Shown piece after piece: positions 5,299 to 57,948 of a DNA stretch of 64,000 bases (positions within the stretch are counted from its first letter, which is position 1; each line of letters begins with the position of its first letter). Made by a program: the position numbers and the translations under genes. The stretch comes from Bacilli bacterium. GTDB taxonomy: Bacteria; Bacillota_I; Bacilli_A; RFN20; CAG-826. Under the pieces are notes generated by a model. It did no database searches. It was not told the DNA's origin and saw only the letters and a program-made list of their open reading frames with translations. Where the stretch lies: positions 1,918 to 65,917 of the forward strand of contig JAGCCQ010000050.1 of the NCBI GenBank assembly GCA_017651565.1, read 5' to 3'.

Positions 5299-5826
5299 AT
5301 GAACTTATACGAAAGTATTAGGAACAATTTTGATAAGTTAAACGAGGCTAAAGATAGTCAAGTAACTAATTATATAGTTAACCGTGGAGATTATACTTTA
5401 ACTGTGACACAGAACCTTGTTGGTGGAAATGCTGTTTTAAAAGATAAAAGTGGAAAAGTTGTTGGTAAGTTAAAGTTTACAGAGAAGGACGAACCCTTCT
5501 ATAGTGATACAGTTGTAGATACTAATGACTTAACACACTTAATAAGTAAACTTAAACCAAATATTGGTATTTATAGTTTATACCGAGAAGGATATGAAGA
5601 TGAAGATCTTTTAGATCCAGATAGTAATAGCGATACAGAACTTTGGGTAAACGGCAAGATCTATTGGCAAGGATCTGCTAAAGATGTAGATGTAAATCTA
5701 TTAATGGATGTTGCAGATCAAGCTTCAGAAGAAGATGGAAAGATTTACGATACAGACGAAGTCGAGATAGTTTATACAGGCGAAGGTGGAGAACCTGACG
5801 CTACTCTACCTTGGGCTCGTTATTAA
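5299..5826 (+). CDS. Putative internal head protein with capsid-targeting-like leader
   Basis: N-terminus MNLYESIRNNFDKLNE|A; acidic body; GGAGG RBS. Confidence 0.65.
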   Translation: MNLYESIRNNFDKLNEAKDSQVTNYIVNRGDYTLTVTQNLVGGNAVLKDKSGKVVGKLKFTEKDEPFYSDTVVDTNDLTHLISKLKPNIGIYSLYREGYEDEDLLDPDSNSDTELWVNGKIYWQGSAKDVDVNLLMDVADQASEEDGKIYDTDEVEIVYTGEGGEPDATLPWARY

Positions 5827-5855
5827 GTTTAAAATATATAGTAAGGAGATATAGT

Positions 5856-5990
5856 ATGGCAAAAAGTAAAAGTAGTAGAGGTAAAGATTTTTACACTAGA
5901 CAGTACGCTAAAACAGAAGCGAACTTGAAAAGAAAAGGAAAAACTAATAAAAAAAGAAATCACGCTGGATACAAAGCCAATGTGAAATAA
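5856..5990 (+). CDS. Small basic protein (44 aa), not in the ORF track
   Basis: AAGGAG RBS, ATG 5856, MAKSKSSRGKDFYTRQYAKTEANLKRKGKTNKKRNHAGYKANVK*; fills the intergenic gap. Confidence 0.65.
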   Translation: MAKSKSSRGKDFYTRQYAKTEANLKRKGKTNKKRNHAGYKANVK

Positions 5991-6003
5991 AGGAGGTATT
6001 ACT

Positions 6004-6291
6004 ATGAGAAATAGTGATGTTGAAGTTGTATCGACAAAAGATTTAAGTGGTCTTATGATCGGTTATCAAGCAGGGGTAAATAGAATAGTTATTGTTACAA
6101 AAGACGGAGAGAAGTTAAGAAGAAACTTGGCTGTTAAAGGTTTAAATATCTTAAGAGCCCCTGGAGAGTCTGGATGTAACTTTAGTTATTATAATTATGA
6201 TGACGGACAACTTCATATAATAAATATGAAATATGTTGATAAGATACAATTATATAGAGATAAAGAATTAGTAGGAGAGATTGTAGAATAA
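6004..6291 (+). CDS. Hypothetical protein
   Basis: 95 aa, AGGAGG RBS. Confidence 0.7.
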   Translation: MRNSDVEVVSTKDLSGLMIGYQAGVNRIVIVTKDGEKLRRNLAVKGLNILRAPGESGCNFSYYNYDDGQLHIINMKYVDKIQLYRDKELVGEIVE

Positions 6292-6303
6292 GGAGGTAGT
6301 GTT

Positions 6304-9072
6304 ATGAATATTTATGAAAGTGTTAGAACTAATCTAAATGAAGTTAAAAAAATAAAAAACGATAAAAGCCTATTACAAAAAGTTTTAGATACTGCTGAAA
6401 ACCTTGGTTGGACTTATAGTGAAGTTAATTATGCTGGAGACGAAAAAGGTTATGAGTTTTATCAATACAGCCCAGCAGGAGAAGATTTTAGTTTTTCTTC
6501 TTGTTATGGTAGCGAAAGTTTATCAGATGATGAAAAAGGAAGAAACTTAATCAAGGATATAGTTGATTATGCTAATGACTTTGATACAAACGAACACGCT
6601 GGTATGTTATACAATGCAGGACAAGAAGGTTTTGAAGGCGTACCAGATTTAGATATACTTGTTGATGACGCAAAAGATATTGATAATATGTTACAAGATC
6701 TAGCAAATGAACTTGAAAAGATTAATGATGTTATGAACGAAAGTTACACATATTTTTGGCAAGATGATATTGAAGAAGTTGATTATTCTGAAGATAATGA
6801 CGAGATTTGGTATGCTGTTGCTAGTAATATGTGTGAAAAGGAACCAGAAGAATATGGAGACGATCCAACAGAAGTAATGAGCGATATAATTTCTATTTGG
6901 AAGATAGAGAAGAGAAGCCGTTTATATAAATACCTATTAAAGTGGTATGGATCTGAAGAAAAACTTTTAGATAATGTTAGAGATGTTTATGAAACAGATA
7001 ATGCTATTTATTTCGTAACAGGTTGTGGTTATTCAATCTTTTCTGCAGACTTACTTGGTGGTACTGCTGATGGTAATGCAGGAAGAGAGTTTGACGCTAT
7101 GGTTAGACAGGAAGAAGGACTTAATGAAGGAGTGCTTGAACCAAAATACTCATCAAGAAAGAGTTTCTATGGTAAAGCTGGTACTGATAGCACAGCTGAA
7201 GGTAATGTTTTAACAAGTTATGGAACACCTATAATGAGAATTAAAGATGGAAATGTTGAAATGTTATGTGGCGAGTGGGCTTTAACAAGTACAACATTAA
7301 GACATATAAGAGAGTTTATGCAACAAAACGGTCTTGAACCTTTATCTAAAAGACAATTAATTGATCTAATTAATAAAAAAGGTTTAAGAGAAAGTAAAAA
7401 AGATAAAGAGTCAGATAAACTTTTTAAGGCTTTAGTTAATTCAGATAAGTTTATTAAACAAGTTGAAAAAGAAAAAGGTTTAAAAAACTTAACTTCAAAA
7501 TCAGGAGAAGTAATTGATAGAGCAGAGGAGTATATTCAAGGCGACTATGAAGGTGCTCTTAAGTTTGCTGGTTTAAAGGAAAGTAAAGAAGATAAAGAAT
7601 ATAAGAAACAAGTTGAAGATGAAGGTAAGATGGCTGACGCTATACACCAAGAGTTTAAGAAATCTAAAAATAAAACTAGAAAAGAATTAGAAAAGATTTG
7701 TAAGAAGCATAATGTTGGTGTTGAAGATTATCTATACGCTGACGGTTATCAAGGAAACTTTGACGAATTAGTAAATGAATTAAAAGAGTCAGACAGTTTT
7801 AACTATAATGGTTACACATTTAGACCTGTAGGTAACTTTAAATCAAATAAAAACTTTGCTAGTTTTATAAATAGAGATATAGATAGTAATATTAATAATA
7901 ATTTTAAATATGACGATTTCTATAAAGTAGCACCAGAGGTTGATCTATTTACAGTTGATGAGTTAGATAATGCTTTGGTAATGCCTGGATCAAATGGTTT
8001 CTTTAGATATAGAGGAACTGAAGACGATTATATTCCAATGGAAAACCTTAAGAGTAAAGCAGAGTTAAACACTGTTGATAACCTAGGGTATATTGGAGAC
8101 GAATACGATAAAGAGATAGTTGATGATATACTTGGTAGTGAAGATTATGGAAGTATAGCACATAAAGTTGGTTGGGCTCTTAATAGGTATCAATTATATA
8201 ATTTAGCAACACTTTATATTAATGACGAAAGCACAAGAGAAAAAATTGAAGAATTACTTACTGATATTAATTATCATAGTGAGTGCTCTGACCTAATGGA
8301 TAACCCAGAAGCATTTAGAGATAGTCTTATGACAAGTTTATCTGAAAGTGCTACTGTGGTAGGTAAAAAGATATTAAAAGAAGCACCAACAGAAGAACAA
8401 GAAGACGAAGAGTTTGTACTTGCTGATGGTGGTATTAGTGATAATAGTCCAGAAAAGATGACAGCAGAAGAGACAGGCGAGGAAATGTCAGACACAGAAT
8501 ATGAGGAAGAAGCAGAGGATGACGCTAAAGATATAGTTAAAGACGATATTGAAGAACCGTTCTATGCTACCGTTCCTGAATATGATGAGTTAAGAGAAGT
8601 ACTTGTTGATCTAGACTATAGATTATTACTAATAAATGACGATATAGTTTGTATTGGAAGACTTAATGGACCAGATATAGAAATACTTACATCTAACCAC
8701 GAAAGTAGTGACGATATAAATAAATCAGAGTCAAATGATAAATCAGACGAAATAGAAGAAAGAGCTGAAGAGAACGAAGAAGATAGTTATGAATACTTAT
8801 GGATCAAAGCACCAAAGGGCTCTTTAGAAGATTTCTTAAAACAAGTTAATGTATTATATCTATCTCCTGAAATGAGTGAAGAAGATAAAGAACAATACGC
8901 TGGTCTTGAGGCTAATCACGAAAGCGTAATGAATTATCTAATGAACGAATTACCAGAGGATAAGAGAAAAGATAAAAAGGAAGAAGAAACTGAAGAAGAA
9001 GTGGAAGAGGAAACAGTAGAAGAACCTACTGAAGAAGTATCTACTGAAACTGAAGTTGAGGAGGAAAAATAG
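6304..9072 (+). CDS. Multi-module polyprotein, putative head internal/core protein
   Basis: Leader MNIYESVRTNLNE; internal MNES, LNEG, LRES, LKES, LSES, LKEA. Modules include a YSPAGEDF...GVP domain and an SFYGKA...TTLRHIREF domain; Glu-rich tail. Confidence 0.7.
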   Translation: MNIYESVRTNLNEVKKIKNDKSLLQKVLDTAENLGWTYSEVNYAGDEKGYEFYQYSPAGEDFSFSSCYGSESLSDDEKGRNLIKDIVDYANDFDTNEHAGMLYNAGQEGFEGVPDLDILVDDAKDIDNMLQDLANELEKINDVMNESYTYFWQDDIEEVDYSEDNDEIWYAVASNMCEKEPEEYGDDPTEVMSDIISIWKIEKRSRLYKYLLKWYGSEEKLLDNVRDVYETDNAIYFVTGCGYSIFSADLLGGTADGNAGREFDAMVRQEEGLNEGVLEPKYSSRKSFYGKAGTDSTAEGNVLTSYGTPIMRIKDGNVEMLCGEWALTSTTLRHIREFMQQNGLEPLSKRQLIDLINKKGLRESKKDKESDKLFKALVNSDKFIKQVEKEKGLKNLTSKSGEVIDRAEEYIQGDYEGALKFAGLKESKEDKEYKKQVEDEGKMADAIHQEFKKSKNKTRKELEKICKKHNVGVEDYLYADGYQGNFDELVNELKESDSFNYNGYTFRPVGNFKSNKNFASFINRDIDSNINNNFKYDDFYKVAPEVDLFTVDELDNALVMPGSNGFFRYRGTEDDYIPMENLKSKAELNTVDNLGYIGDEYDKEIVDDILGSEDYGSIAHKVGWALNRYQLYNLATLYINDESTREKIEELLTDINYHSECSDLMDNPEAFRDSLMTSLSESATVVGKKILKEAPTEEQEDEEFVLADGGISDNSPEKMTAEETGEEMSDTEYEEEAEDDAKDIVKDDIEEPFYATVPEYDELREVLVDLDYRLLLINDDIVCIGRLNGPDIEILTSNHESSDDINKSESNDKSDEIEERAEENEEDSYEYLWIKAPKGSLEDFLKQVNVLYLSPEMSEEDKEQYAGLEANHESVMNYLMNELPEDKRKDKKEEETEEEVEEETVEEPTEEVSTETEVEEEK

Positions 9073-9073
9073 T

Positions 9074-11815
9074 ATGAGATTAATTAATAAGAGTTTAACT
9101 GAAAGCATTTATTCCAACTTAAATCGTAGCGAGAGTTTAACTGAAGGAAAGAAATATATTTTACAGTATTGGGCTGACGAATACTCAAGAGACCAAGGTT
9201 TCTCTGAAATAGAGTATATTAATGCCACAGACGATGAGGACGCAGTAGCAAAAGCAAGAGAGATCTATTATGATAACTATTGGGCTTCTTGCGAACTTGG
9301 TAGACCAGGAGATAAGGAAGTATCAGATCCTATCTTTGGTATCTACGGTAAGAAAGAAGAAAGATGGGATAAGAAACCAGCAAATGAGAGCGTAGTTGTA
9401 ACAGCAGGTAGTACTTCTGTTGTATCTGATGAGTCAGGTGTTGTTGTGTCTGATAATAACACAACTATATCTGTATCTGGTGGGGCTTCTGTTGATATAG
9501 ATAACTCAATGCCAGAACCAATGCCTGTAGAAGATCCAATGACTACTGATCTAGGAGATATTCCTGGAGAAGATATGAAAGAGGAAGGAACTGACGAAGA
9601 AGAGACAGAAGAAACTGAAGAGGAAGAAGAAGTAATAGAACCTAGCGAAGAGTTAATCGAACCTGAAGAAGAGGAAGAAGAAAAACTAGAAGAAAACGCT
9701 GGAGATCCAAACAGTACTGTTGAAATATTTAAAAACCCAGACTATGATTATAAAATTACTGATATAACTGAACTTGATAATGTTGATGTTGGAGATGTGA
9801 GAAGTATTGATATGTTCTCAATACTTAATAATCTAGAAGAAGGACTTACAGCAAAGTATGGTACTGATAAGTGGGGACTTTTAAATACATATCAAACTAG
9901 GCAAGGAAGAGATAAGAAGACAAACGAAAGTTATGCCTCTGCTCTTTTAGATATATCTATTCCAAAAAGAGGACTTAAAGAAGAACTAAATACTGTCTTA
10001 ACTGTTGAAGTTATTGGAAATAGAAAGTTAAAAGAGTGTGTTGTTAAAGACGCAAGATATAATAAAAGAATAGAAAGATTTTGTGGTAAAACTAATAACC
10101 CAGCAAAGTTTTTAGAAGGTGTTATTGTAGACTTAATCAATAATCGTGGAACATCTGGGCTAGTAAAATATAAACCTATGTCTGAAGATGTTAGATCTTT
10201 AAAGGAACAAGTAGCAGATGAAGCTTATGAAATTGCAGATATAATTGATAAGAACGCAGAAGCAAGAGCACAAGTAAATAAAAAGGGAGACCAAATATTA
10301 CGCTGGAACGATTTTGACGAAGAGTTTATATTGGCTTGTAAAAAAGTATTTGGACTTAAAGATAAAGATTTAGATAATTTCTATGATGGAAACTTTCTAG
10401 CAGATAAGTATAAAGATCATCCATATAGTGGTTGTGAAGATATTAATGAACTAGAAAACACTGTAAGAGGTATCCTAGGACTAAATGGTTGGGAAACAAT
10501 TTGGGAAAGTGAAGACGATAACGATATTTACGAAGGAGACCTTGTTGCTAGAAATTGGGATGAATATAAACTAGACGATACAGGAAGAATAGTTAAAGAA
10601 GATGTTAACTTCCTTGTTAATAAAAAACCATTTAGTGATAAAGGTGTTAACTTTGCAGATGGTAGAGCAATCGAAAAAGATGAAAAAAGACAAAAAGCAC
10701 ATCTTAAAGATCGTAAGAGACTTGGTAAAACAGTTAAGACTTTTAAAGTTGAAAAGGAACCAGATCAAAAGAATACAAGAGGAAAAGAAATCTCAAAGAT
10801 TTCCGACATTGTTGTCAAAGAAGGATGTGACGGGAAAACTCCCAGGGGAAAGAAAGATAAGAAGAATATAGAAGAAAATGTAAATGAAGAAGCAGAGCGT
10901 ATTATGTTAACGCCTGTTGAAAACTTTGATTATATTGATCCGTATGGTATCTATTATAAAGACGATAATGGAAATCTTTATAAGTCAGATAGTAATGGTA
11001 CTGAATTATATATCTGTACTAAATCTGGAGAACCTATGGAGGCAGTAGATACTTCTAGTTATATCCTTGGGGATAAGGCTTTAAATGAAGGTAATGATAA
11101 ACCATTTCTTAAAAATAAAGAAACAGGGGAAACTTACACTTTAGAAGAAGTTAAAGATAAATGGAGAGAACAGATAGAAGATTGGCAAGGAACAAATATG
11201 GAAACAACTGAAGAGAATTATCCATTTGAAATGTATCTTTCTGATATTGACGGCTTACAAGAATATGAGTTTTTACAAGAAAAAGATTTAGTTGGTAAGA
11301 AAAAACCAATTAAAGAAGCAAAAGGTCTTTTAGATGATGAGGAAGACGAAGAAGAAGTTACTAGTGAAGTTAGTGACGAAGAATTAGTTGATACAGATTC
11401 AGAATTAGACGAAGGAACAACAGAGGTAGCAATATTCCATAGAAAACCAGCAAGTGTTGATACAATGAAACAAGCAGAGGAAAACGGTATCACTGTTAAT
11501 AAGTCAAACTATAAAATTATCGGAACTAAAGAACTAACTAATGAAGAGTTTGAAGATTTCTCAAAACACTTAACATCAAAAGGATATGATTGGTTAAAGT
11601 CTATGTATAAGGTAGAAGATAACTCTGGTATATTCAACTGTATAGAAGTTATTAATAAAGATGATGATACAGCAACAAAACTATTAGTTGATCCAAACGG
11701 ATATGATTATGGTAGATATGTAGCATTTGAAAAAGATCAAATCGAAGAGCCTGTTGAGGCTGAAGAAGAAATAAGTGTTGAAGAAGAACCTATAGAAGAT
11801 ATTAAGGAAGAGTAA
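9074..11815 (+). CDS. Multi-module polyprotein, putative head internal/core protein
   Basis: ATG 9074 after GGAGG; leader MRLINKSLTESIYSNLNRSESLTE|G; many LxE sites; Glu-rich tracts. The C-terminal FHRKP...LVDPNGYDYGRY module resembles DUF6329 (recalled, not searched). Confidence 0.7.
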   Translation: MRLINKSLTESIYSNLNRSESLTEGKKYILQYWADEYSRDQGFSEIEYINATDDEDAVAKAREIYYDNYWASCELGRPGDKEVSDPIFGIYGKKEERWDKKPANESVVVTAGSTSVVSDESGVVVSDNNTTISVSGGASVDIDNSMPEPMPVEDPMTTDLGDIPGEDMKEEGTDEEETEETEEEEEVIEPSEELIEPEEEEEEKLEENAGDPNSTVEIFKNPDYDYKITDITELDNVDVGDVRSIDMFSILNNLEEGLTAKYGTDKWGLLNTYQTRQGRDKKTNESYASALLDISIPKRGLKEELNTVLTVEVIGNRKLKECVVKDARYNKRIERFCGKTNNPAKFLEGVIVDLINNRGTSGLVKYKPMSEDVRSLKEQVADEAYEIADIIDKNAEARAQVNKKGDQILRWNDFDEEFILACKKVFGLKDKDLDNFYDGNFLADKYKDHPYSGCEDINELENTVRGILGLNGWETIWESEDDNDIYEGDLVARNWDEYKLDDTGRIVKEDVNFLVNKKPFSDKGVNFADGRAIEKDEKRQKAHLKDRKRLGKTVKTFKVEKEPDQKNTRGKEISKISDIVVKEGCDGKTPRGKKDKKNIEENVNEEAERIMLTPVENFDYIDPYGIYYKDDNGNLYKSDSNGTELYICTKSGEPMEAVDTSSYILGDKALNEGNDKPFLKNKETGETYTLEEVKDKWREQIEDWQGTNMETTEENYPFEMYLSDIDGLQEYEFLQEKDLVGKKKPIKEAKGLLDDEEDEEEVTSEVSDEELVDTDSELDEGTTEVAIFHRKPASVDTMKQAEENGITVNKSNYKIIGTKELTNEEFEDFSKHLTSKGYDWLKSMYKVEDNSGIFNCIEVINKDDDTATKLLVDPNGYDYGRYVAFEKDQIEEPVEAEEEISVEEEPIEDIKEE

Positions 11816-39287: not shown

Positions 39288-40022
39288 ATGAATAACATTA
39301 GTTCCAAGATATTGGGAAACATAAAAGAAAGTAAGAAGAGAGTTATAAAAGAGAGTTGGGTGGAAGTGGACCACAAGAGCGTTAGTGACGCTGATGGTTT
39401 TACAACTGAATACACTTTATATAAAGACGATAACGGTAAGTTTAAAACTGTTTTTGGAGACAGAGATTTATATAACCCTGAAGATAATGCTGATATGGAG
39501 TTTGATAATGAAAAAGAAGCATTAGACTTTTATAATAGTTATGAAGGAATCGTTGAATCTTCGTATAATAAAGAGGATGGGAAAACTGATGAAGAGGTCT
39601 ATGAAGAGTATATGGCTCGTGAGAAAGAAAGAGCTGAAGAGGGTATTAAAGACTTATGCAATCAGATAACAGACGAGAGAAGACAGAAGTTTGAGGACCT
39701 TAAGGTTTTAACTGATGACAATATTGATTATGAGAAGACTTTAGTTAATGGTTTCTGGATACCAATAGACTTTGTTTATGCTGTTAATGACTCTGGAAAA
39801 GGGCACCACTTAAACCCATATATGGATCTAACTGATACAAATATATACTTCCTAGTTTATGAAAACGATACTATAGAAGACGCAATTAGAAGTTTATTTG
39901 ATGAATACAAAGCTGACAGTGCTTATTCTTGGGGAGATAACTTCTTATATGCTCTTGATAAGGCTAACCCAAATGCTTATCAAGAAATGCAAGATGACTA
40001 TAGTGAAGAGGAAGAAGACTAA
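39288..40022 (+). CDS. Putative internal head protein with leader, two modules
   Basis: Leader MNNISSKILGNIKE|SKKRVIKE|S; internal IVES; acidic. Confidence 0.65.
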   Translation: MNNISSKILGNIKESKKRVIKESWVEVDHKSVSDADGFTTEYTLYKDDNGKFKTVFGDRDLYNPEDNADMEFDNEKEALDFYNSYEGIVESSYNKEDGKTDEEVYEEYMAREKERAEEGIKDLCNQITDERRQKFEDLKVLTDDNIDYEKTLVNGFWIPIDFVYAVNDSGKGHHLNPYMDLTDTNIYFLVYENDTIEDAIRSLFDEYKADSAYSWGDNFLYALDKANPNAYQEMQDDYSEEEED

Positions 40023-45100: not shown

Positions 45101-47185
45101 GACAAGTTTACTGATATTGAGTTAATTGAATTAGCAAAATTATGTCAGTTAACAGACGAGAACCCATTTGGAAGAAGTTATGATGATGAAGTTTTTGATG
45201 AGATGGATCGAAGAGGTTTATCTTTAAATAAAAATGAAGCCGTAACAACAAGTGAACCAAAAAGTGCAACTCAAACAACTAATTCTAAAAAGGTTAAAGA
45301 TTATCTAAATTATGAGTTACAGGACGATGATACTGAAACAGGTGGTGTATCTTTTAATGGAGAAACTGTTGAAGATTTTATCAAAGACGCAGATATAAAA
45401 GACGATGATGACCTAGATAAACTTAATAAGGCTCTAGTAAGTTGTGGAATAAAACCTATTACTGAAGGGTATGAGGGTAATTATCGTGGAGATGATTATT
45501 GGGACTTAAGTGATAGTTATACTAATGGTAATATAACAGAGGAAGAACTAGCACAAAGTCTATTAGATATGTATGACTCAAGAATAGAAGCTGTAAAAGC
45601 ATTTAAAGAGATAACTGATAATAAAGCATTTCCCAGAAAAGAAAAATCAACAGGATCAGATATAAAAGAGATTACTGATGAAGAGATGGGCTCTTATATA
45701 GAAGCCTGGGATAATGGAGACGAGTTACCATTTGAAGGAGATAGATTTATTACTGTTGGAGATGGAGACGGTCCTATTCGTGGTGTTGGTGGTAATGGTA
45801 TTATTGTTGCATTAGATAACAGAACAGGCGATTGTTGGGTTGAAGAGTTTGATAGTAAAGATAAAGCAATATCGTGGTTGAACGATGAGTTTAATGTTGG
45901 CGATGTTATTAATGAAGAAGAAAAAAGAAGAATAGACGAAAGTTTTAATATAAAAAGTGCTTATGTTTATGAAATAAATCTAATTAATATAATTGTAACT
46001 AACGGTCAATTTAGTGGATATTCTTACGAAGATATTAAAAAGGTATTAGAACAGAACATTAATTCCTTTACTAAAGATAAAGCAGACGATATTGAACTTA
46101 ATGATGGTAAATGGTTAATATTTGATGGTGTAAAAGGAATAGATAGATATAGATTTTATCAGTTTACAGTAGAAAAGCGTATGGTTGATCCAAAAGATAT
46201 AAAACCATTTCTAGAAGCAAAAGATGAGAGTTATGATGAGTATAGAAATTGGTGGGGCAGTAATATACAAACAGCAGTACCAAAAGAAGCACAAAAGATA
46301 ATAGCAGATCGTTATAGTGAAGACGAAATGATAGACTTACTTAAAGATTATGAATCTGCTGGGTTAGACCGTGTTGCTTTTAGAGATTCAATGGGTAATG
46401 GTAAGTTGAGAAATGAGTGGCTAATTATAAATGATATTTATATGATGGGTTTAACAGACGAAGATAAATATCCTAGATTGCATAAAGTTGCAAAAGAAAT
46501 ATACGATAAAAATAATACTGAAAAAGCAAAAGCAGAAGAACTTAACGGTGGAGGCAAAATAGAAAACGCCGTTAAGTTAGCCTCTGACGATTATAGAATA
46601 CACTTCGATAATAGAACACCATTTGATATGTTCTATGCACCTGAAGAGGATGAATACCTAGAAGATTATGATTATGTTAAGTATTACAATAAGATTTTAA
46701 ATAATTTAGGTTATGCTAATATTTTAATAAATCGTAGTCCTATGGTTACTTATGTATCTGATGGAAAGCAGGAGATGGACTTTGGTAGTGGTTATGTCAT
46801 AGATTTAAGAGCCTGGGATACATTTGAAGATGTTGTTAATAATACTAAAGATATTCTTGCAATATTAGAGGGGGAAGGATCTTTAAATGAATCTGTGGAA
46901 GATTTAGAAAAGAAACCCTTAAGTGTTAACAAGTTATTTAAGATCTGGTGTGATCTAATGATGGATATTGAAGATTTTGCTGATAAGTGGAACGGTTGCA
47001 AAGGAACACCAGACGAGGTAAGAAGACAAAGAATACAATTAGTTAACCCAGCTGTTGTTGAGTTTGTTAGTGAAAACTATGACTCAATTAAAGCACAATG
47101 GGACAGTTTTTATGATATTATGGAAGATAATAATTTCCACACGCCTTTAATAGCGATTGAAATGGAAATGAATAAATATAAATAA
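42191..47185 (+). CDS. Large multi-module polyprotein (1664 aa), putative head internal cargo
   Basis: Leader MKILKENTIIKTLKE|S; many LxE[SAG] sites; duplicated modules; two YT.Y...G..IDGG modules resembling polyvalent-protein LPD domains; a DNRTGDCWVEEF module. Confidence 0.75.
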   Translation: MKILKENTIIKTLKESDVNAEGLTLMEVIDKLYGGSFDCDVSDVDIDILVCFSYDKYVLEDDEYSRFLRVLAERTKVVKQITGEYGNTYVCDFSSVFKPYNDELMNIFNMNNSEFDDSEAYYEAVVNLEALIPGYAGERTYKELSDILEGKGEKLEPVNQFNHKSLDEAIDLSKNRAMAGALDKNKIAKFLKDAVNDLQTTSYTCSQYILDPELAIYVGWSAGWGDEIRDDIIQDKENPDYGLTAGIRIRATYWADFEYLDSPYFKEDGEYYDADLSMKPNMTDKDYIKDAEYLIKCYKEIRKGLDKGTLIYESKKVKGKKKLNESKKVLKEGKEKKKSKLSSNDIFDGVNFEFKSGSDTFYMYASWYDNFDFEEEIESGNIPEDANEEDWGAIYFDIYDTNGENIDGGLMVTDEDDFTVESLCSDLADLAGYSSVTNAKLIDSIPNKDGGKGAKVTLSDLDSEGKNYTFTGDRGNGEEEMILNFFTSGNADGIDYTFYTKDGSEVDGGVLEVDSEKTWNSPEEVAKEIIDFQGIKNKGDLKKLNDGSIEDILEESVKSSKKVLKEANRTKLIKSYLDCKLERDGSGYDIGTSFKQGETVEDFIKDNHISIDKPLYLLNRSLRNNGIKPVRAWLDDEETYNKFKNYVDWQLRDGAIDDPNYVMTLSDEEYNNLLVNSWMKDEEMRDAFEEFGLEESMDLVGSHPGYNDFKGKDQLKKALVSSITDWIDDNYGSTEADEPCYNMKKLVDTIIDSGCLRQKDLKTVIYGVIISWIDDNYGSTEADEPCYDMKKLTDVIVKTVQSMKLKESDEGIINPDEKEYYDDTLYLVGLYPGVGYELATFKVYANSEEGALETVVAYCEEKGYFGLITPINDLEKEVEETYKDEFAEYQAKNPESDSFDFITNYLNYIYIDATPEGASKPYFIDGQAVCHPIDKINESIDYDKIVDEGMTVKELDDIAQWLYDYRREEWDKFTDIELIELAKLCQLTDENPFGRSYDDEVFDEMDRRGLSLNKNEAVTTSEPKSATQTTNSKKVKDYLNYELQDDDTETGGVSFNGETVEDFIKDADIKDDDDLDKLNKALVSCGIKPITEGYEGNYRGDDYWDLSDSYTNGNITEEELAQSLLDMYDSRIEAVKAFKEITDNKAFPRKEKSTGSDIKEITDEEMGSYIEAWDNGDELPFEGDRFITVGDGDGPIRGVGGNGIIVALDNRTGDCWVEEFDSKDKAISWLNDEFNVGDVINEEEKRRIDESFNIKSAYVYEINLINIIVTNGQFSGYSYEDIKKVLEQNINSFTKDKADDIELNDGKWLIFDGVKGIDRYRFYQFTVEKRMVDPKDIKPFLEAKDESYDEYRNWWGSNIQTAVPKEAQKIIADRYSEDEMIDLLKDYESAGLDRVAFRDSMGNGKLRNEWLIINDIYMMGLTDEDKYPRLHKVAKEIYDKNNTEKAKAEELNGGGKIENAVKLASDDYRIHFDNRTPFDMFYAPEEDEYLEDYDYVKYYNKILNNLGYANILINRSPMVTYVSDGKQEMDFGSGYVIDLRAWDTFEDVVNNTKDILAILEGEGSLNESVEDLEKKPLSVNKLFKIWCDLMMDIEDFADKWNGCKGTPDEVRRQRIQLVNPAVVEFVSENYDSIKAQWDSFYDIMEDNNFHTPLIAIEMEMNKYK

Positions 47186-47196: not shown

Positions 47197-47763
47197 ATGA
47201 AAGATAGATTAAGTAATACAATACTAAAAAACATTAATGAAGCCTATGAAGGTCCATCTTATGAAAACTATGTTTGTGATTATCTTGGAGATTATTTTAT
47301 AGCATTAGAGGAAAAAGGTTTAAATAATGGTTATACATCTTTTTATGATTTTGTTTATAGTCTTTTAGATCACGCAGAGGAAGATGATTGGTATAAAAAA
47401 GAAATGCGTCTCGTAGAAAAAATTGATGTTATAGTAAATAAAATAATAAATTATTTATATAAAGAAGACCATAAGCCCGTTAAACGATATAATCTTTTAT
47501 TAGATAAGAAAAAGACACCAAGTTTAACTAACTTTATGCTTGGATCTATTGGGTATATGTTTAAAAGTGAGGCAGATTCTAATATAGAGATTGATCCTAT
47601 AGGTCTTTATGATTGGTTAAGTGGTGGGGAAACATTTGAAATGCTTGTTAATGATGATGATACACCAATGTTTAATCAAACTGCTATTGATAAACTAAAT
47701 GAAATGTTAACCGAGTTAGATCCATTAATTCAACAAATAAATAAGTTATTATGTGAGGCTTAA
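47197..47763 (+). CDS. Putative internal head protein with leader
   Basis: MKDRLSNTILKNINE|A. Confidence 0.65.
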   Translation: MKDRLSNTILKNINEAYEGPSYENYVCDYLGDYFIALEEKGLNNGYTSFYDFVYSLLDHAEEDDWYKKEMRLVEKIDVIVNKIINYLYKEDHKPVKRYNLLLDKKKTPSLTNFMLGSIGYMFKSEADSNIEIDPIGLYDWLSGGETFEMLVNDDDTPMFNQTAIDKLNEMLTELDPLIQQINKLLCEA

Positions 47764-47772: not shown

Positions 47773-48315
47773 ATGAAGAATATAAGTAATGACATATTCA
47801 GTAAGTTAAACGAAAGTGCTGAAGATAGTAAAGAAAGATTACAAGATATGGCTTATAACTTCTGTAGTGAAGTTGGTAGCGAAGCTGATCTTGAATATGT
47901 AATTAAAGAAATGAAATGGTGGTTAGAAGAAAGAAAAAGACAAAATAGAGAGGATAAGATTTCTAACCCAGGGAAAGATACATTTCCTAGTGATATGTCT
48001 GATGACGCTTTAAGAAAACATTTAAAAGGTCTTAAAGGTAAAGGAAATGCAACAAAACGAGCAGAAGCAAAAGACGAAATTAAAAGAAGAGGAATAAAAG
48101 AGGCAAAAAGTATAGACGAGTTTGATCCAGAAGTTTTAATTGATAATATAATATCTATGCTTAAGGATACAAGTGGAATTAAAAATGTAACAAAGAGCCA
48201 CGAAGACTATTCTGTTATAAGTGGAGACTATATATACTTTGATGAGTATGCTGACGATGGAGAAGTATACAAATGGGTTTTGGCTTTAGGAGAGGACGAT
48301 CATAATGAAGAATAA
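47773..48315 (+). CDS. Putative internal head protein with leader
   Basis: MKNISNDIFSKLNE|SA; internal IKEA. Confidence 0.65.
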   Translation: MKNISNDIFSKLNESAEDSKERLQDMAYNFCSEVGSEADLEYVIKEMKWWLEERKRQNREDKISNPGKDTFPSDMSDDALRKHLKGLKGKGNATKRAEAKDEIKRRGIKEAKSIDEFDPEVLIDNIISMLKDTSGIKNVTKSHEDYSVISGDYIYFDEYADDGEVYKWVLALGEDDHNEE

Positions 48316-48577
48316 TGTAAGTACAAAAATACTTGAAGGAATTGAAAACGCAACTGAAATCACTTCTAATATTCAAGGAGAGTGTCCTAAATGTGGAGGA
48401 ACATCACTAGACTATGGCGATGTTGTCTTTGAAGATTTTATTGACGATGGTGCTGTATATTTCCCTTGGACTTGTCCTGATTGTGGTGCTGAAGGTAGAG
48501 AGTATTACTATATATATTTTGCAACACATAAAGTAAAAGATAAGGAAGGCTACTTCGATGAAGTAGAAAAGTGGTAA
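48305..48577 (+). CDS. Zinc-ribbon protein with leader
   Basis: MKNNVSTKILE|G; CPKCG...WTCPDCG. Confidence 0.65.
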   Translation: MKNNVSTKILEGIENATEITSNIQGECPKCGGTSLDYGDVVFEDFIDDGAVYFPWTCPDCGAEGREYYYIYFATHKVKDKEGYFDEVEKW

Positions 48578-48579
48578 GT

Positions 48580-49083
48580 ATGAGATTAAGAGAAGGAATT
48601 GATATAACAAAATCTATGGTAAAAAGTCTTAATGAAGAAGACGAAGTTGCAACTGATAATCAATATATGGAAAAACTTAAAAGTCTTATGGATCAACTTT
48701 CAGAAGAAGGAACTGCTTTAGAGAAAGATGTTTTAGACGATCAGTATGACGAAGTCGATGATTATGAAACACCACAAGATTTTTTAGAGCACCTTTGCGA
48801 TTTACATATTGCAGACGGTAGCGTAACATCTATGATTTATTATGATGATACTCTTGCTTTTTTAGAAAAACACGAAGACGAAATTAATGAATTATTAAGT
48901 GAGTTGTTAAAAGAAGTTGGAGGATCTTTCAAAGATTTATTTGGAGATAATTATGACGATACTGATCCAATGAATATAGGAACTTCAAATAAAAACTTAT
49001 TTGCCTGGTTTGGTTATGAAGAAATAGCCAGAAATCTTGCTTATAAGTTAAACGAACTTGGCGACTTTAACGCAAATATATAG
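48580..49083 (+). CDS. Acidic Ocr-like (DNA-mimic-like) protein with leader
   Basis: Leader ends SLNE|E; very acidic; DGSVTSMIYYDDT...NLFAWFGYEEIA is reminiscent of T7 Ocr YYADI...IYEQL. Confidence 0.5.
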   Translation: MRLREGIDITKSMVKSLNEEDEVATDNQYMEKLKSLMDQLSEEGTALEKDVLDDQYDEVDDYETPQDFLEHLCDLHIADGSVTSMIYYDDTLAFLEKHEDEINELLSELLKEVGGSFKDLFGDNYDDTDPMNIGTSNKNLFAWFGYEEIARNLAYKLNELGDFNANI

Positions 49084-49092
49084 GAGGTAAAA

Positions 49093-51333
49093 ATGAAAAA
49101 AGATAGATTATCAGAGAGTATTTTAAGTAATATTAAAGATGGTGGTGGTAACTTTCCAAAAAGAAAACCACTTAAAGAGTCAAAAGAGTCAGTAGTATCA
49201 AAGAAGAAATTAAAAGAAGGTAATTTCGTAATGGTTGATACACCAGATGGACCTATCTTTACTATGGCTGATGTTGTAAATAAATGGAATAATACAAGAC
49301 CAGAAGATAAAAAGTTAAAAGCAAAATCTGTTAAACCAGAGGATGTTCTTGGAAAGAAGTCTAAAAAAGACGGAAAGAAATTAAAGGAAAGTGCTGATAC
49401 AGTTGAAAAAGTAATCGCAGAGGTTAATAACTTAAATAATAGCAACTTAACTAGAGGTAAATTAAAAAAAGCACTTGCCGATTTAGTTGGAGATGATTTT
49501 AATTGGTATAGAGTAGATCCAAATGATGACTATGAGTTTTCAGGATATTTTACTATAAACGATGAAGACTATGAGTTTTGTGTTAACTTTGCTGACGAGG
49601 TTTATGCCGAGTTTCGTAACGCTGATGGGGATATTCTAAATGAGTCTTGTAAAGGTAAAAAACCTAAAAAGACGATAAAAGAAGGCATTAAAGATGACGC
49701 TAAAAGTTTTATAAAGGCTAACGGTTTAGAAAGAGATTTAAAAACAAAAAGTCCAAGCGACTTTATGAAATCTGTAGATAAAATGTTTGCAGATAATAAT
49801 TTATGTACTTGGTGTGGAAAAAAGATAGTTGGAAAAGTTTGTAAAGATAAACACGGAAACCCTACTTGTGAAAAATGCTATAAAGAACTAAATGAGTCAT
49901 ATAAAGGAAAGAAATTAAAAGAGTCTGGTTTTAATTTATCTATACAAGGTACTTCAATTAAACCTTGTAATTGGTATTTAGAAAGAAAGTCAGAGTTTGA
50001 CTCTTTATACTGTATGGCAATAGGTAGTGATAATTTAGATTATATTAAAGAAAAGTTAGACGTTTTTTATAATATGGCTAAAGATAGTATACTAGATCCA
50101 GAACATCTTGGTTATGTTAATATGGCTGAAGGTTATAAAGGTAAAAGAAGTAAATTAAAAGAAAGTAGTGCAAACAGAAGAAATAACTTTGCTAGTTATG
50201 TAAATAATGTTTGTAACTTCTTAAACAACTTAAGCCCTGAATTAAGTGAGGACCAAGCTGCCGAGTTAGTACATCAAGCTGCCTTTGTATACAACGATGA
50301 AGATTTAGAATTATACGAGTGTCATCATAGACTTACAGACGATATAATGAGTGAGTTGAATATTTCTGTTGAAACAGACGATGGAGATCGTATGCTTAAA
50401 ACTTTACAAAGAGCAGTAGGTTATGATATTGACCTTGTTAATGAAAGTTGCAGAAGTAAGATGAGAAAAAAATTAAAAGAGTCAGATGATTTCGATATAC
50501 CTAATATGACAGATGACGAATTATTTAGGTTGTTTTGGGAAATTAAAGATGATTTTGAGACAGGACAGTGGAGTTCTATGGATGAATTGCTCCCTGCTAT
50601 TGAGGAAGAACTTGAAAAAAGAGATTTAGAGCCTATATATAGTGACGAATATGACGCTTCTGTTGAGTTTGATGACGGCATTATCGAATCTTGTAAGGGT
50701 AGAAAGAAAAAATCAATTAAAGAGAGTGCTGAAGAAGTAAAGGCTTTTTGGGATAAAGTTGGTAATAAAGAAATAAAAATTGGCGATAGTATTCCAATGG
50801 ATAATAGCATAGGTAGTCAAGCAGAAATATTGGATCTTGGTGGAAGTTATTGGGACTATATTTTAGTTAAAGTAAATCACAAAAACGGAGATTATGAATA
50901 TGTAGCTGCCTGGGCTCCAGGACTATATAATGATAAATTAGTTTGGGGACAAGGACATTATTTTGATACTGATTTAGACTCTGCTAGAAACTATTTTAAA
51001 AATAAAGTTGGTAGAGGTACAGTTTATACTGAAGCCTGTAAAGGTAGAAAGAAAAAATTAAAAGAAGATATAATAAAAGTTGGTGGCGTTGATCGTAACT
51101 ATCGTGATGATATTGAAAGAGGAATTATGAACGAGATAAGATATGTTATTGATTCTGTTTTAGATTCTTTAGGTTCTGATGTAAGTGAAGAGAAACGCAA
51201 AAAACTAGAGGCTTTAACAGATGAAGATCTTTATAACATAGCGTCATCCGTATTATATGACAATCAATTCAATGTTGATTTAAGAAATGCTATCCAATAT
51301 TATTTAGAACGATATATTAAAACATCTAGATAG
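49093..51333 (+). CDS. Multi-module polyprotein with repeated basic double-cut linkers
   Basis: Leader MKKDRLSESILSNIK; six E-[SGA]-[CY]-[KR]-[GS]-[KR]...[LI]KE linkers; modules include a CxxC zinc finger and a WGQGHYF domain. Confidence 0.75.
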   Translation: MKKDRLSESILSNIKDGGGNFPKRKPLKESKESVVSKKKLKEGNFVMVDTPDGPIFTMADVVNKWNNTRPEDKKLKAKSVKPEDVLGKKSKKDGKKLKESADTVEKVIAEVNNLNNSNLTRGKLKKALADLVGDDFNWYRVDPNDDYEFSGYFTINDEDYEFCVNFADEVYAEFRNADGDILNESCKGKKPKKTIKEGIKDDAKSFIKANGLERDLKTKSPSDFMKSVDKMFADNNLCTWCGKKIVGKVCKDKHGNPTCEKCYKELNESYKGKKLKESGFNLSIQGTSIKPCNWYLERKSEFDSLYCMAIGSDNLDYIKEKLDVFYNMAKDSILDPEHLGYVNMAEGYKGKRSKLKESSANRRNNFASYVNNVCNFLNNLSPELSEDQAAELVHQAAFVYNDEDLELYECHHRLTDDIMSELNISVETDDGDRMLKTLQRAVGYDIDLVNESCRSKMRKKLKESDDFDIPNMTDDELFRLFWEIKDDFETGQWSSMDELLPAIEEELEKRDLEPIYSDEYDASVEFDDGIIESCKGRKKKSIKESAEEVKAFWDKVGNKEIKIGDSIPMDNSIGSQAEILDLGGSYWDYILVKVNHKNGDYEYVAAWAPGLYNDKLVWGQGHYFDTDLDSARNYFKNKVGRGTVYTEACKGRKKKLKEDIIKVGGVDRNYRDDIERGIMNEIRYVIDSVLDSLGSDVSEEKRKKLEALTDEDLYNIASSVLYDNQFNVDLRNAIQYYLERYIKTSR

Positions 51334-51345
51334 ATTATAAAATAT

Positions 51346-51366
51346 AAAAGGACGAAAGTCCTTTTT
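51346..51366 (+). terminator. Intrinsic terminator
   Basis: AAAAGGAC-GAAA-GTCCTTTT. Confidence 0.8.
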
Positions 51367-51385
51367 GTTTTGCATTTATGCGAGG

Positions 51386-51401
51386 TTTTTATATATAAAT
51401 A
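51386..51401 (+). promoter_or_regulatory. Phage promoter class B (late-type)
   Basis: TTTTTATATATAAATA (contains the T4 late consensus TATAAATA) just before AGGAGG. Confidence 0.6.
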
Positions 51402-51413
51402 TAGGAGGACTTT

Positions 51414-52862: not shown

Positions 52863-52881
52863 TAAGAGGAGATTTTATAGT

Positions 52882-53928: not shown

Positions 53929-53949
53929 TTAAGAGAGGAGTTGAAAGTT

Positions 53950-54492
53950 ATGAGATTAAACAACGAGATACTTTCAAGTCTTAAAAAAGAAAAATTAAGA
54001 GAGTCAATGTGGAAAAAATCTTTTGGTAAGAAACAAAAGTTTATTGACGATAAGCCACAACAACAAATACAAGAGGACTTAATACCTCTTTTAAATGCTT
54101 ATGGTATTAAAATGATAGCAAAGCCATATATTAATAGACCACAACAACAAACATATATTGGGTTTGATAATAATAACAATAGAATACATCTAACTTTCTC
54201 TATAAGTCCTAGAGTTGTTGACGATAACTTTGGTAATATTGCTGTTAGTATTCGTTATAAAGGTAAGGATGAAGATTTAGGAACTATTGATATAAGTACA
54301 CCACAGGGACTTGACGAAACTTTCTCTTTAATAACAAGTGCTCTAGAATATTTAGGACTTGATATTGAGGGTAATGGTAAGGAAGAGGAAAAGCCTAAAG
54401 AAGAGAACGATCCAGATGTAGACGAATTAATTAAGTTTAAGAGTAGTTTAAAAGAAAGTGAACTTAAAGAATTGGAGGTAGTCTATGAGTAG
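53950..54492 (+). CDS. Putative internal head protein with leader
   Basis: MRLNNEILSSLKKEKLRE|S; C-terminal LKESELKE. Confidence 0.6.
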   Translation: MRLNNEILSSLKKEKLRESMWKKSFGKKQKFIDDKPQQQIQEDLIPLLNAYGIKMIAKPYINRPQQQTYIGFDNNNNRIHLTFSISPRVVDDNFGNIAVSIRYKGKDEDLGTIDISTPQGLDETFSLITSALEYLGLDIEGNGKEEEKPKEENDPDVDELIKFKSSLKESELKELEVVYE

Positions 54493-56023: not shown

Positions 56024-56024
56024 T

Positions 56025-56558
56025 ATGAAACTTAATGAAAGTATTTTACATAATTTAAAGGAAGGTAGCCCTGTAACAGTTATATGTGGTGGGACAAAGT
56101 TTGAGTTTGATAGTTTAGATAAAGCAAAGTCTTTCTGGTTAAACTGTTACTATAATAGTGAAGGATCAGAGCAAAGTAGATATGAAGATATTTTAATGGA
56201 TCTAAATGACGGAGAAACTTTTGTTACTGACGGATCAACTCCAAAATCTGGTGTTGACCTATACAATAAATACAAGGGTGTTAAGGACTCTGGAAAGTAT
56301 AAAGTAATGGATAGAGAATATACTTTAGGTGGAGATAGTTGGAAAACAGCAGAAGATTATATCACTTTCTTTAATGGATCTGATCTTGCTAGAAGTAAAT
56401 CTACTTGGAAAGAGTTTAGAGACGAAATGGCTAAAGGTGGCTATGACAAGGAGTCTAAATATTTACAAAATAAATTAGAAAAAGATTTTGGTGTTAAACT
56501 TGAGGGAGCAACACCAAGAAGACATAAAGGCGTTAGAAGAAAAAGAGGAGGGTGTTAG
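56025..56558 (+). CDS. Putative internal head protein with leader
   Basis: MKLNESILHNLKE|G; a VTVICGG...SEGSEQSRY module. Confidence 0.65.
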   Translation: MKLNESILHNLKEGSPVTVICGGTKFEFDSLDKAKSFWLNCYYNSEGSEQSRYEDILMDLNDGETFVTDGSTPKSGVDLYNKYKGVKDSGKYKVMDREYTLGGDSWKTAEDYITFFNGSDLARSKSTWKEFRDEMAKGGYDKESKYLQNKLEKDFGVKLEGATPRRHKGVRRKRGGC

Positions 56559-56559
56559 T

Positions 56560-57552
56560 ATGCGAGTACATAACAGAATACTATCACTATTAAAGGAAGA
56601 GTATAGTGATAACTATAAAGAGTTATTATCATCTTTACACAATGTTGCCGAAATGTTTGGCGAAGATATGCTTGATGATGAAGGCGATGTTTTTGGTGGA
56701 ACTGCTGATAGTTATGCTAGTGAAATGTTAGAGCAACATTTATTTGACGCTATTTACTATAATGAGTTATTCTCTGGTCTTGGAGACGAAAAGATTTCAA
56801 ATATATATAATGAGATACTTGACTATCTTTCATCTGGTAAAGTTGTGTCTGAAGAGTGGCTTAAGGGACTTTTAAGTAAGTACGGAATTAATGTTGGTGG
56901 TGTAGAAGAGAAACCAAAGGCAAAACAACCAAGTAAGAAAAGTTATAGACAAAGTGAGTTTAAAAAGTTAGCCATTGATAATCTTGGCTTTGATTATCAA
57001 ATTAAAATAAAATCTCAAGATGGAGAAACTAAATGGCTAGATATAAGCCCTAAAGAATTATCTGGTATAGAAGGTATTTTAGTACATAATTTAAAAGAAG
57101 GAACTATCTATAAATGGGATAGAGATAAGGGTTATGGATATTTTACTTCAAGTGATAATGATAATAAATCAGAAGAACCAAAACATAAGATTAGTAGAAC
57201 AGACTATTCAAACGATGAAGACTTTTTAAGCGAATTAAAACCAGGATATTCTTCTGAAATTGAAAACGATTATGTTATAAGAAATATTGGCGATGGTTTT
57301 CAAATATATTCAATTCATCCTTACGATGAAACAGATTATTCTTTTGCTAAATCTAAAGATGGTATTAATTGGATAGTTGTTGATCCAGAGAAAAGAACTC
57401 TTGATTTACAAACAGTAACAAAACCAGCAACAACTTATGAGATTAAAATCGAGCCATCTAACCCTGCTGTTTATGAAAACGATCTTACAGCAGTTGTTGA
57501 TAAAATGAGAGAGATTGACGCTACTAAAAAGCCAAGAATAGATAGAACATAG
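56560..57552 (+). CDS. Putative internal head polyprotein with leader
   Basis: ATG 56560 after GAGGAGG; MRVHNRILSLLKE|E; internal ILVHNLKE|G. Confidence 0.65.
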   Translation: MRVHNRILSLLKEEYSDNYKELLSSLHNVAEMFGEDMLDDEGDVFGGTADSYASEMLEQHLFDAIYYNELFSGLGDEKISNIYNEILDYLSSGKVVSEEWLKGLLSKYGINVGGVEEKPKAKQPSKKSYRQSEFKKLAIDNLGFDYQIKIKSQDGETKWLDISPKELSGIEGILVHNLKEGTIYKWDRDKGYGYFTSSDNDNKSEEPKHKISRTDYSNDEDFLSELKPGYSSEIENDYVIRNIGDGFQIYSIHPYDETDYSFAKSKDGINWIVVDPEKRTLDLQTVTKPATTYEIKIEPSNPAVYENDLTAVVDKMREIDATKKPRIDRT

Positions 57553-57561
57553 GAGGAAGTT

Positions 57562-57948
57562 ATGAAGTTAGGACAATCAATTTTAAAGAACTTAAACGAG
57601 ATCGAAGTACACACTGTTGATAACGATCCACTTTGGGCTAAAGCTGTTGCTGAAGTTAACGCACAGTGGGAAAAAGAAAAACCAGGGGTAGCAGAAGATA
57701 TTAAAGCAGAATATAAGGAATATTTAAAAACTTTAAAAGAGGCTGGATACACTAAAGAACAGATAGATAAAATGCCAGAGACAAAAGCCTATAAAGACGC
57801 TATAAAAGATCCAGACGATATATGGTGTGAGTGTGGCTATTACTCTGACGATGAAACATATTACAAAGAATACGGAGAGTTTTACCTAGGAGTTGAGTCC
57901 GAAGGATACCTTTGTAAAAAATGTATGAAGTTTACTCAAATTGGGTAA
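57562..57948 (+). CDS. Putative internal head protein with leader and C-terminal zinc ribbon
   Basis: MKLGQSILKNLNE|I; WCECG...LCKKC..TQIG. Confidence 0.65.
   Translation: MKLGQSILKNLNEIEVHTVDNDPLWAKAVAEVNAQWEKEKPGVAEDIKAEYKEYLKTLKEAGYTKEQIDKMPETKAYKDAIKDPDDIWCECGYYSDDETYYKEYGEFYLGVESEGYLCKKCMKFTQIG

Follow-up and report, generated by a model that had tools for sequence, protein, structure and literature searches.

Why should about 15 otherwise unrelated proteins encoded on one stretch of phage DNA start with nearly the same short peptide? This question is raised by a window of 64,000 nucleotides (C42:1918-65917, i.e., positions 1918 to 65917 of the 116,171-bp contig JAGCCQ010000050.1, called C42 in the following), for which a first-pass annotation had quoted 15 such N-termini and suggested a role in capsid targeting. 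As judged from the comparisons described here, the shared leader is probably a propeptide of the kind known from phage T4 as capsid-targeting sequence (CTS), serving as address and cut site on 16 precursor proteins.

All of the 15 quoted N-termini were found at the genes to which they had been assigned. A sixteenth leader protein is encoded by a giant open reading frame (ORF) that is cut by the left edge of the window, starting at C42:1629, 288 nucleotides left of it, and bearing a leader nearly identical to that of the ORF at window position 9074. Four leader genes (9074, 48580, 53950, and 56560) require an internal ATG backed by a Shine-Dalgarno (SD) sequence instead of the first start codon. 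The leader comprises 10-20 residues with a core of [ST]-I-L-x-N-L-[NK]-E (aligned on the terminal Glu) and ends in [LI]-x-E, the core often being preceded by an earlier [LI]-x-E/S. The leader genes and the head genes next to them are the following (window coordinates and strand; protein lengths in amino acids, aa; a slash marks the end of a leader or a candidate cut):

3..4799 (+), 3' 1598 codons of the gene for a 1695-aa acidic giant, leader MRLINKSLTE/SLYTNLK...TLKE/G, 10 [LI][KNTL]E/S sites
5299..5826 (+), 175-aa leader protein, MNLYE/SIRNNFDKLNE/A, no Pfam or PHROG family
6304..9072 (+), 922-aa multi-module leader protein, MNIYE/SVRTNLNE/V, PHROG modules of unknown function at residues 189-254 and 272-357
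9074..11815 (+), 913-aa leader protein, MRLINKSLTE/SIYSNLNRSESLTE/G, ATG with strong SD sequence
39288..40022 (+), 244-aa leader protein, MNNISSKILGNIKE/S, just upstream of the portal gene
40234..42180 (+), portal protein of T4 gp20 type, N-terminus MALFKRKSKQTLNE/G, PF07230, phrog_213
42191..47185 (+), 1664-aa leader protein of possibly polyvalent-type architecture, MKILKENTIIKTLKE/S, five [LI][KNTL]E/S sites
47197..47763 (+), 188-aa leader protein, MKDRLSNTILKNINE/A
47773..48315 (+), 180-aa leader protein, MKNISNDIFSKLNE/S
48305..48577 (+), 90-aa zinc-ribbon-like protein with the weaker leader MKNNVSTKILE/G
48580..49083 (+), 167-aa DUF7222 protein (PF23864, 5.6e-11), leader MRLRE/GIDITKSMVKSLNE/E
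49093..51333 (+), 746-aa leader protein, MKKDRLSE/SILSNIKD, 8 sites of the K-K-L-K-E/S type
53950..54492 (+), 180-aa leader protein, MRLNNEILSSLKKEKLRE/S, 36% identical to its orthologue on the related contig G001
54485..56023 (+), 512-aa soluble FtsK/SpoIIIE motor, leader MSRNIYYKILE/A, PF01580, PF17854, PF09397
56025..56558 (+), 177-aa basic leader protein, MKLNE/SILHNLKE/G
56560..57552 (+), 330-aa leader protein, MRVHNRILSLLKE/E
57562..57948 (+), 128-aa leader protein, MKLGQSILKNLNE/I
57961..60492 (+), 843-aa prohead protease polyprotein, start MKSTLIE/S, PF03420, phrog_207
60684..62039 (+), major capsid protein of gp23 type, PF07068, propeptide with [LI]xE at residues 9, 30, 40, and 65

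For judging whether these N-termini are alike beyond coincidence, home-made gene calls (ORF plus SD score) were used, so that all denominators are approximate. Within the first 20 residues, [LI]-x-E is present in 16 of 16 leader proteins versus 32 of 110 among the remaining phage proteins and 155 of 886 among the remaining proteins of the metagenome-assembled genome (MAG) in which the contig is binned, a count that is partly circular as the leader set was chosen by the same motif. A 9-residue weight matrix was derived from 13 leaders and applied to the complete MAG proteome (1011 called proteins), in which every seed was located at residues 3-11. Apart from the seeds, only seven positions proteome-wide reached scores of at least 13.5 bits, one of them close to an N-terminus. 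When each seed was left out in turn, scores ranged from 4.8 to 17.8, with 6 of 13 attaining at least 13.5, and the tail region gave a single weak matrix match. When the initial 22 residues of 126 phage proteins were compared pairwise without any motif, 19 pairs exceeded the 99.9th percentile of a reference distribution built from pairs of internal segments, compared to 7.9 expected, and 9 of the 10 proteins having at least two partners belong to the leader set. A chance likeness or a bias due to low complexity or composition might be suspected, the motif being short and rich in the residues that are most frequent in this genome (I, L, N, K, E, and S). Besides the matrix scan, the motif-free test and the [LI]-x-E count, this is contradicted by the independent relative G001, an IMG/VR contig of 123.5 kb, where the matrix trained on the present phage alone matches the N-termini of 11 out of 140 called proteins against 2.3 expected from the internal match rate. 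Mere coincidence is thus highly improbable.

The proteins behind the leaders are indeed unrelated, as had been claimed in the first-pass annotation: BLASTP with the 16 proteins minus their first 25 residues did not reveal any within-genome pair at E ≤ 1e-3. Among pairs of identical residues in the leader core, the same codon is used in 123 of 256 cases, compared to 122.5 expected from phage codon usage, and in the DNA upstream of the leader genes no common element was seen besides the SD sequence. Hence, it is the peptide that is conserved and not a DNA or RNA element, and recent duplication is not the source either. The helical hydrophobic moment is greater for the leaders (median of 0.59) than for the other N-termini (0.46; Mann-Whitney P = 2e-4). 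Two further leader-like starts are present at C42:38 (MLEELYNRLKNIKE...) and C42:115652 (MNLYEEVKNN...). They were left out of the leader set because their homologues on G001 lack a terminal [LI]-x-E at this place.

The 16 tagged genes total 24.9 kb, corresponding to 21% of the genome, and are arranged in two clusters. The first one (window -288 to 11815) comprises three giants and the 175-aa protein, with untagged ORFs at 4843 and 6004 among them. The second one starts with the gene at 39288 just before the portal gene and continues from 42191 to 57948 between portal and protease genes, abutting the latter. In all three relatives whose upstream DNA was examined (G001, L018, and L023), the gene immediately preceding that of the protease likewise carries the leader and varies in sequence. 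In the ORFs called between 11.9 and 39.2 kb, assigned to replication and metabolism, no leader was seen. The case that would have refuted the idea according to the first-pass annotation, a motif equally common on genes for non-virion proteins, was consequently not observed, genes for replication, nucleotide metabolism and the tail being devoid of the leader.

The surroundings of the second cluster connect the leader to a T4-type head. C42 is a complete myophage genome sitting in a MAG bin (1.58 Mb, 74% complete); its terminal 141 bp are identical at both ends, indicating circular closure at about 116,030 bp. Nearly all long ORFs are on the + strand, mostly with AGGAGG-type ribosome sites, at a guanine-cytosine content of 0.30-0.33. 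A portal of T4 gp20 type (PF07230, 2.5e-40; phrog_213), a prohead protease of gp21 type (Peptidase_S77; PF03420, 1e-16; phrog_207, 7e-47) and a major capsid protein of gp23 type (PF07068, 3.1e-52) are encoded, along with a large terminase (weak match) and, downstream of the head genes, contractile-tail/baseplate-like genes as judged from N-terminal sequence, position, and length alone. For comparison, the T4 head and internal-protein genes were taken from the T4 genome record, and the cutting motif [LI]-x-E was drawn from the termini of T4 gp23, gp24, gp21, ipII, and ipIII as well as from PMC9026906. The protease of the present phage starts with MKSTLIE/S, T4 gp21 with MNEPQLLIE/T, and both share GELxHP and SSRGxGS blocks in the alignment. 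Likewise, the capsid protein shows K-L-T-E-65/A and T4 gp23 F-L-T-E-65/A at the same residue number, while T4 gp24 begins with MAKINELLRE/S and both ipII and ipIII with MKTYQEFIAE/A. Within the leader, positions -2 (Leu/Ile) and 0 (Glu) are best conserved. In addition, a hydrophobic pair at -6/-5 is found in 12 of 13 leaders versus 4/23 and 5/23 internal [LI][KNTL]E/S sites. As this pair is mostly absent at internal sites, the leader carries information beyond the cut site, as in the T4 CTS, where targeting (residues 4 and 7) and processing (residues 8 and 10) are separable (PMC9026906). The idea of a T4-like targeting leader removed by the protease is therefore supported, if only circumstantially, by the T4-type protease, portal, and capsid protein encoded, by the [LI]-x-E terminus, by the clustering of tagged genes at the head genes, and by a relative that keeps the leader on different cargo.

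This relative, G001, is close in its head genes (capsid protein 88%, portal 72%, and N-terminal part of the protease 82% identical) and encodes about 14 leader proteins at syntenic places. Cargo counterparts between the two phages are nevertheless limited to six proteins each (11 local alignments). The FtsK proteins are 65% identical over 428 residues, whereas the other counterparts consist of partial or shuffled blocks: the 922-aa protein has a part in common with a 428-aa protein of G001, and modules of the 913-aa protein are shuffled in comparison with an 863-aa protein. With cargo counterparts few and mostly partial and the leader kept, the tag is retained while the cargo turns over. Metagenome contigs with 73-92% capsid identity give the same picture over the stretches available. 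For the 746-aa protein, a search among 5.8 billion proteins yielded only two partial homologues besides itself. Capsid residues 1-60 (propeptide, window 60684-60880) are almost invariant between the present phage and G001, with the whole protein at 88% identity; a propeptide more conserved than the mature shell protein is expected if many partners must fit.

In the cultured Streptococcus phage vB_SagM-GXN1 (PQ819873.1), at least six small proteins encoded close to head and tail genes begin with a shorter dialect of the leader, MRLV[KR]L[TN]E/. In this 176-kb record with only 40 annotated features, leader-like starts of the form MRL[IV]..L[TN]E/ or MLLINKSLNE/ were observed on small unannotated ORFs, for example at record positions 98803, 132585, 132841, 134401, 143096, and 144003. 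The Bacillus phage HSE3 and the Listeria phage LIS04 do not possess a cargo cluster between portal and protease genes; both have only one conserved ...[LI]-N-E/S protein after the neck gene. At this position, the present phage encodes a 266-aa protein (window 63637-63999 and beyond, C42:65554-66354) with ...FTINE/S near residue 19, and the positional counterparts in HSE3, LIS04, and vB_SagM-GXN1 show ...[LI]-N-E/S around residues 20-23. Probably, it is a conserved component of the head that undergoes trimming by the protease.

The protease motif is not restricted to the N-termini. Ser comes next after 29% of the [LI]-x-E occurrences in the leader set, compared to 6% in other phage proteins. 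The resulting pattern [LI][KNTL]E/S is present at 31 sites in 8311 aa (3.73 per 1000 aa) of the leader set, compared to 9 sites in 27,095 aa (0.33 per 1000 aa) of other proteins of this phage and 54 sites in 290,076 aa (0.19 per 1000 aa) of the rest of the MAG, while in 1000 residue shuffles of the leader set 2.4 sites were obtained on average and never more than 10. The leader set of G001 has 8 sites in 4947 aa (1.62 per 1000 aa). Of the 31 sites, 23 are internal, typically K-K-L-[KN]-E/S and 70-300 residues apart, with the highest numbers in the 1695-aa (10) and 746-aa proteins (8). In the latter, the K-K-L-K-E/S sites are mostly spaced by 70-106 residues and two are only 9 residues apart. 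From this pattern, the giant leader proteins probably are polyproteins to be cut by the protease. The protease gene itself is built similarly: the gp21-like domain (about residues 1-195) ends with ...ILE/S...LKE/S at about residue 193 and is followed by a segment that is entirely different between relatives (genes of 290-946 aa). Then a conserved ELLSDKAKVSLNK..DQSKI.E/S element ends in a leader-like peptide, in relatives of the form S-x-M-N-x-T-x-K-x-L-x-N-E/S, and further modules follow. This conserved element may represent the missing scaffold or leader receptor.

Little can be deduced from the cargo domains. Pfam matches are limited to LPD16 in the 1664-aa protein, just above cut-off (28.4 bits versus 27), DUF7222, a sub-threshold DUF6329, and hints of zinc ribbons, and PHROG matches refer to modules of unknown function only, four of them in the 1664-aa protein. 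The 1695-aa giant has neither a Pfam match above cut-off nor a PDB relative by sequence, and PDB sequence searches with three of the giant cargo proteins gave no match at E ≤ 0.01.

The cargo protein that is most readily assigned is the FtsK-like motor (window 54485-56023). It comprises alpha, beta, and gamma domains (PF17854; PF01580, 8.7e-58; PF09397) with intact Walker A and B motifs, the Walker A sequence GSTGSGKS aligning with the cellular protein, whereas the membrane domain PF13491 is absent and the leader is in its place. Among the 120 best homologues, 79 are phage-type proteins of 455-716 aa, several of them on contigs of 117-128 kb, nearly all starting with a leader dialect (MSRNIYYxLNE, MSITKNILxNLYE, MKLKLVE, MRIKSRLLE, or MKKTLSxxLLESFNE). 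In contrast, 36 cellular FtsK proteins (above 700 aa) start with a run of lysines and four membrane helices. Accordingly, [LIVMF]-x-E is present in the first 20 residues of 76 of the 79 phage-type but in none of the 36 cellular proteins. With the leader located where the cellular FtsK has its anchor, a host-type enzyme has thus lost the anchor and gained the tag. Among natural cases, these tagged motor domains come closest to hinting that the tag by itself may load a foreign protein. In the AlphaFold2 model of the FtsK cargo (mean predicted local distance difference test score of 79.9), the leader begins a helix spanning residues 3-28, which is followed by a helical N-terminal region and a low-confidence linker at 74-80. 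When genomes with other dialects were sought by FtsK homologues, P0048 led to four unrelated elements in IMG/VR (L014-L017) and nothing was found with P0070. Contig searches with P0048 and P0063 mostly returned cellular FtsK genes (best 80 of 564 relatives and 2 loci).

Several observations weigh against a capsid-targeting propeptide. Four members depart from the core, with the final Glu replaced by Arg or Asp (9074 and 49093), an extra Lys (53950), or a short form (48305), although each of them keeps another [LI]-x-E nearby. Two genes within the second cluster are untagged, encoding a DUF5662 protein (51414) and a family-2 glycosyltransferase (52882); together they occupy window 51414-53928, with products of 482 and 348 aa, respectively. 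T4 internal proteins are basic, whereas the cargo is acidic, with a median isoelectric point of 4.5 compared to 5.2 for other phage proteins and 14 of 16 values below 5.5. A scaffold of gp22 type, the presumed receptor, was not found with T4 gp22 as query against the phage's own genome, an empty result that is uninformative. As the tag has no scorable similarity to the T4 CTS, the functional likeness rests on layout and context. The helix modeled for FtsK would place the predicted cut at Glu-11 inside a helix and not in a loop, which is a mild objection, and the rule of Ser following Glu at internal sites was noticed post hoc. Finally, the phage is uncultured, core binding, cleavage, packaging, and ejection all being inferred.

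With these objections in mind, two other functions of the leader have to be considered. It might be a propeptide for processing or activation only, the proteins entering the capsid via other parts or not being packaged at all. Such a role would be compatible with the best-conserved leader positions (-2 and 0) being the protease motif itself, with the internal sites, where this motif can obviously stand alone, and with the separability of processing and targeting in T4 (PMC9026906). It leaves unexplained, however, why the pair at -6/-5 and the preceding Ser/Thr/Asn are kept in 12 of 13 leaders and are lacking at most internal sites, and why bare motor domains such as FtsK have gained a whole leader and not a mere cut site. 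Moreover, a prohead protease works inside the prohead, where its substrates must already be present (T4 biology; PMC5694885). Pure processing is hence regarded as rather unlikely. Improbable as well is that the shared N-terminus addresses another destination, such as the phage chaperonin (12910-14349), membrane or secretion, or degradation, or that it represents an AT-rich 5' translational feature. A Cpn60/TCP-1-type chaperonin gene in fact adjoins the first cluster, and AT-rich genomes generally favor N-termini rich in Lys, Asn, and Ile. The codon use of the leader (123 versus 122.5) is, however, as expected for selection at the protein level, and upstream DNA is not seen to be shared apart from the SD sequence. 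The leader is too little hydrophobic for a signal peptide and ends in the motif of the head protease, the tagged genes are located in the head module, and even the loose [LI]-x-E is found at only 155 of 886 N-termini of the host MAG.

For the favored capsid-targeting propeptide, the following course of events can be proposed. During prohead assembly, the amphipathic N-terminal helix, with hydrophobic residues at -6 and -5 and Leu/Ile at -2, would bind a component of the scaffolding core and thereby bring its cargo into the prohead. Cleavage after the Glu of [LI]-x-E by the gp21-type protease would then set this cargo free inside the head, where it would stay with the DNA until being ejected into the host at infection. 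The five giants might additionally be cut by the same protease at internal [LI]-[KN]-E/S joints, giving modules of roughly 70-300 residues. A further-reaching and quite tentative proposal is that the T4-type head of this clade has become a bulk delivery vehicle. About one fifth of the genome would encode leader-addressed precursors that are diced by the protease at roughly 40 [LI]-x-E/S joints into fast-evolving, small acidic modules, and the soluble FtsK DNA pump might enter the new host together with the genome and act on DNA there, either by drawing in the phage chromosome or by displacing or removing DNA of the host.

The host is presumably a small-genome Bacilli ('Tenericutes'-labelled) bacterium from gut or rumen, as deduced from binning and from the nearest cellular FtsK genes. 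Those closest to the phage-type homologue P0048 (45-55% identical) stem from gut and rumen MAGs labelled Bacilli or 'Tenericutes'. Genomes in the order of the MAG have a size of about 1-1.4 Mb, consistent with such a host, binning alone being no proof of it. A capsid search in 401 genomes of this order gave three matches including the phage's own MAG, the other two being distant at 27-30% identity. At DNA level, no match to window 40000-60000 was found by megablast in 50,697 phage records, and the nearest cultured phages by capsid identity are Listeria phage LIS04 (39%), Bacillus phage SP-15 (38%), Streptococcus phage vB_SagM-GXN1 (36%), and Bacillus phage HSE3 (36%). Directly after the first cargo cluster, window 12910-14349 encodes the Cpn60/TCP-1-family chaperonin (PF00118, 6.2e-34); in the distant relatives HSE3 and LIS04, a GroES-type co-chaperonin is annotated instead. 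The T4 late-promoter word TATAAATA is not enriched (26 matches versus 19.4 ± 4.6 in shuffles) and consequently provides no information on expression timing.

A description of such a leader for this clade was not found in open-access PMC and bioRxiv full text. If the proposed function is correct, the leader would offer a rule for reading the injected protein set of an uncultured clade of gut and rumen phages from the genome, and these proteins would be likely factors of anti-defence and host takeover. The T4 capsid-targeting principle would then also apply to hosts of the Gram-positive type and to cargo such as giant polyproteins and a DNA motor, and a second, different address peptide would become available for loading foreign proteins into phage heads. 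The principle as such is already known from T4, and nothing established would be overturned.

Short tags that send unrelated cargo into an HK97-fold shell are also known from encapsulins, where the cargo-loading peptides are mostly located at the C-terminus, attach to the shell protein and stay uncleaved. The leader of the present phage, in contrast, is N-terminal, and an encapsulin is not encoded. Polyvalent proteins of phages and conjugative elements represent another comparable system. They are very long and composed of multiple modules, their genes lie close to those for packaging, and packaging and delivery along with the DNA have been predicted for them (Iyer et al., 2017; PMC5512222). 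The 1664-aa protein with its LPD16 module and the shuffling of modules between relatives are reminiscent of this architecture. Processing of polyvalent proteins is, however, tied to built-in metallopeptidase domains (PMC5512222), whereas the present cargo has a predicted N-terminal capsid leader and joints matching the motif of the prohead protease; enzymatic or effector domains characteristic of polyvalent proteins were not detected in the cargo with Pfam and PHROG. In the giant phages phiKZ, 201phi2-1, and SPN3US, a gp21-related protease processes numerous proteins of the head interior at x-x-E motifs, with multiple cuts each, and their propeptides are thought to target the proteins into the prohead (PMC5694885). 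These propeptides are mostly longer than 100 residues and heterogeneous, with the motif A/S/G-x-E (PMC5694885), while the present phage employs one short shared leader with [LI]-x-E and is in this respect closer to T4.

The closest parallel is therefore the T4 CTS, found on IPI, IPII, IPIII, and Alt. T4 internal proteins are directed to the scaffolding core by propeptides of 10-19 residues, which gp21 subsequently cleaves off, and the CTS also carries foreign proteins into heads (PMC9026906), a principle known since 1996 (Mullaney and Black, as cited in PMC9026906). In T-even phages, the internal proteins form a diverse set with the CTS as the sole common part (PMC3012670). In both systems, a short N-terminal propeptide (10-19 residues in T4, 10-20 here) ending in [LI]-x-E and followed by a small residue is present on unrelated, fast-changing proteins, and protease, portal, and capsid protein are homologous. 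The differences concern the extent and the cargo: 16 tagged genes occupy 24.9 kb of a 116-kb genome compared to just a few small proteins in T4, five of the cargo proteins are 746-1695 residues long and contain internal joints resembling cut sites, one cargo protein is an FtsK motor, and the host is presumably a small-genome Bacilli bacterium and not a proteobacterium. The tag sequences are not alike either, ipII and ipIII leaders scoring -3.4 and the ipI leader 2.7 on the matrix of the present phage. The first-pass view of an analogous but different tag hence holds with regard to the tag sequence but falls short with regard to the analogy, as the protease and the capsid protein are homologous to T4 gp21 and gp23.

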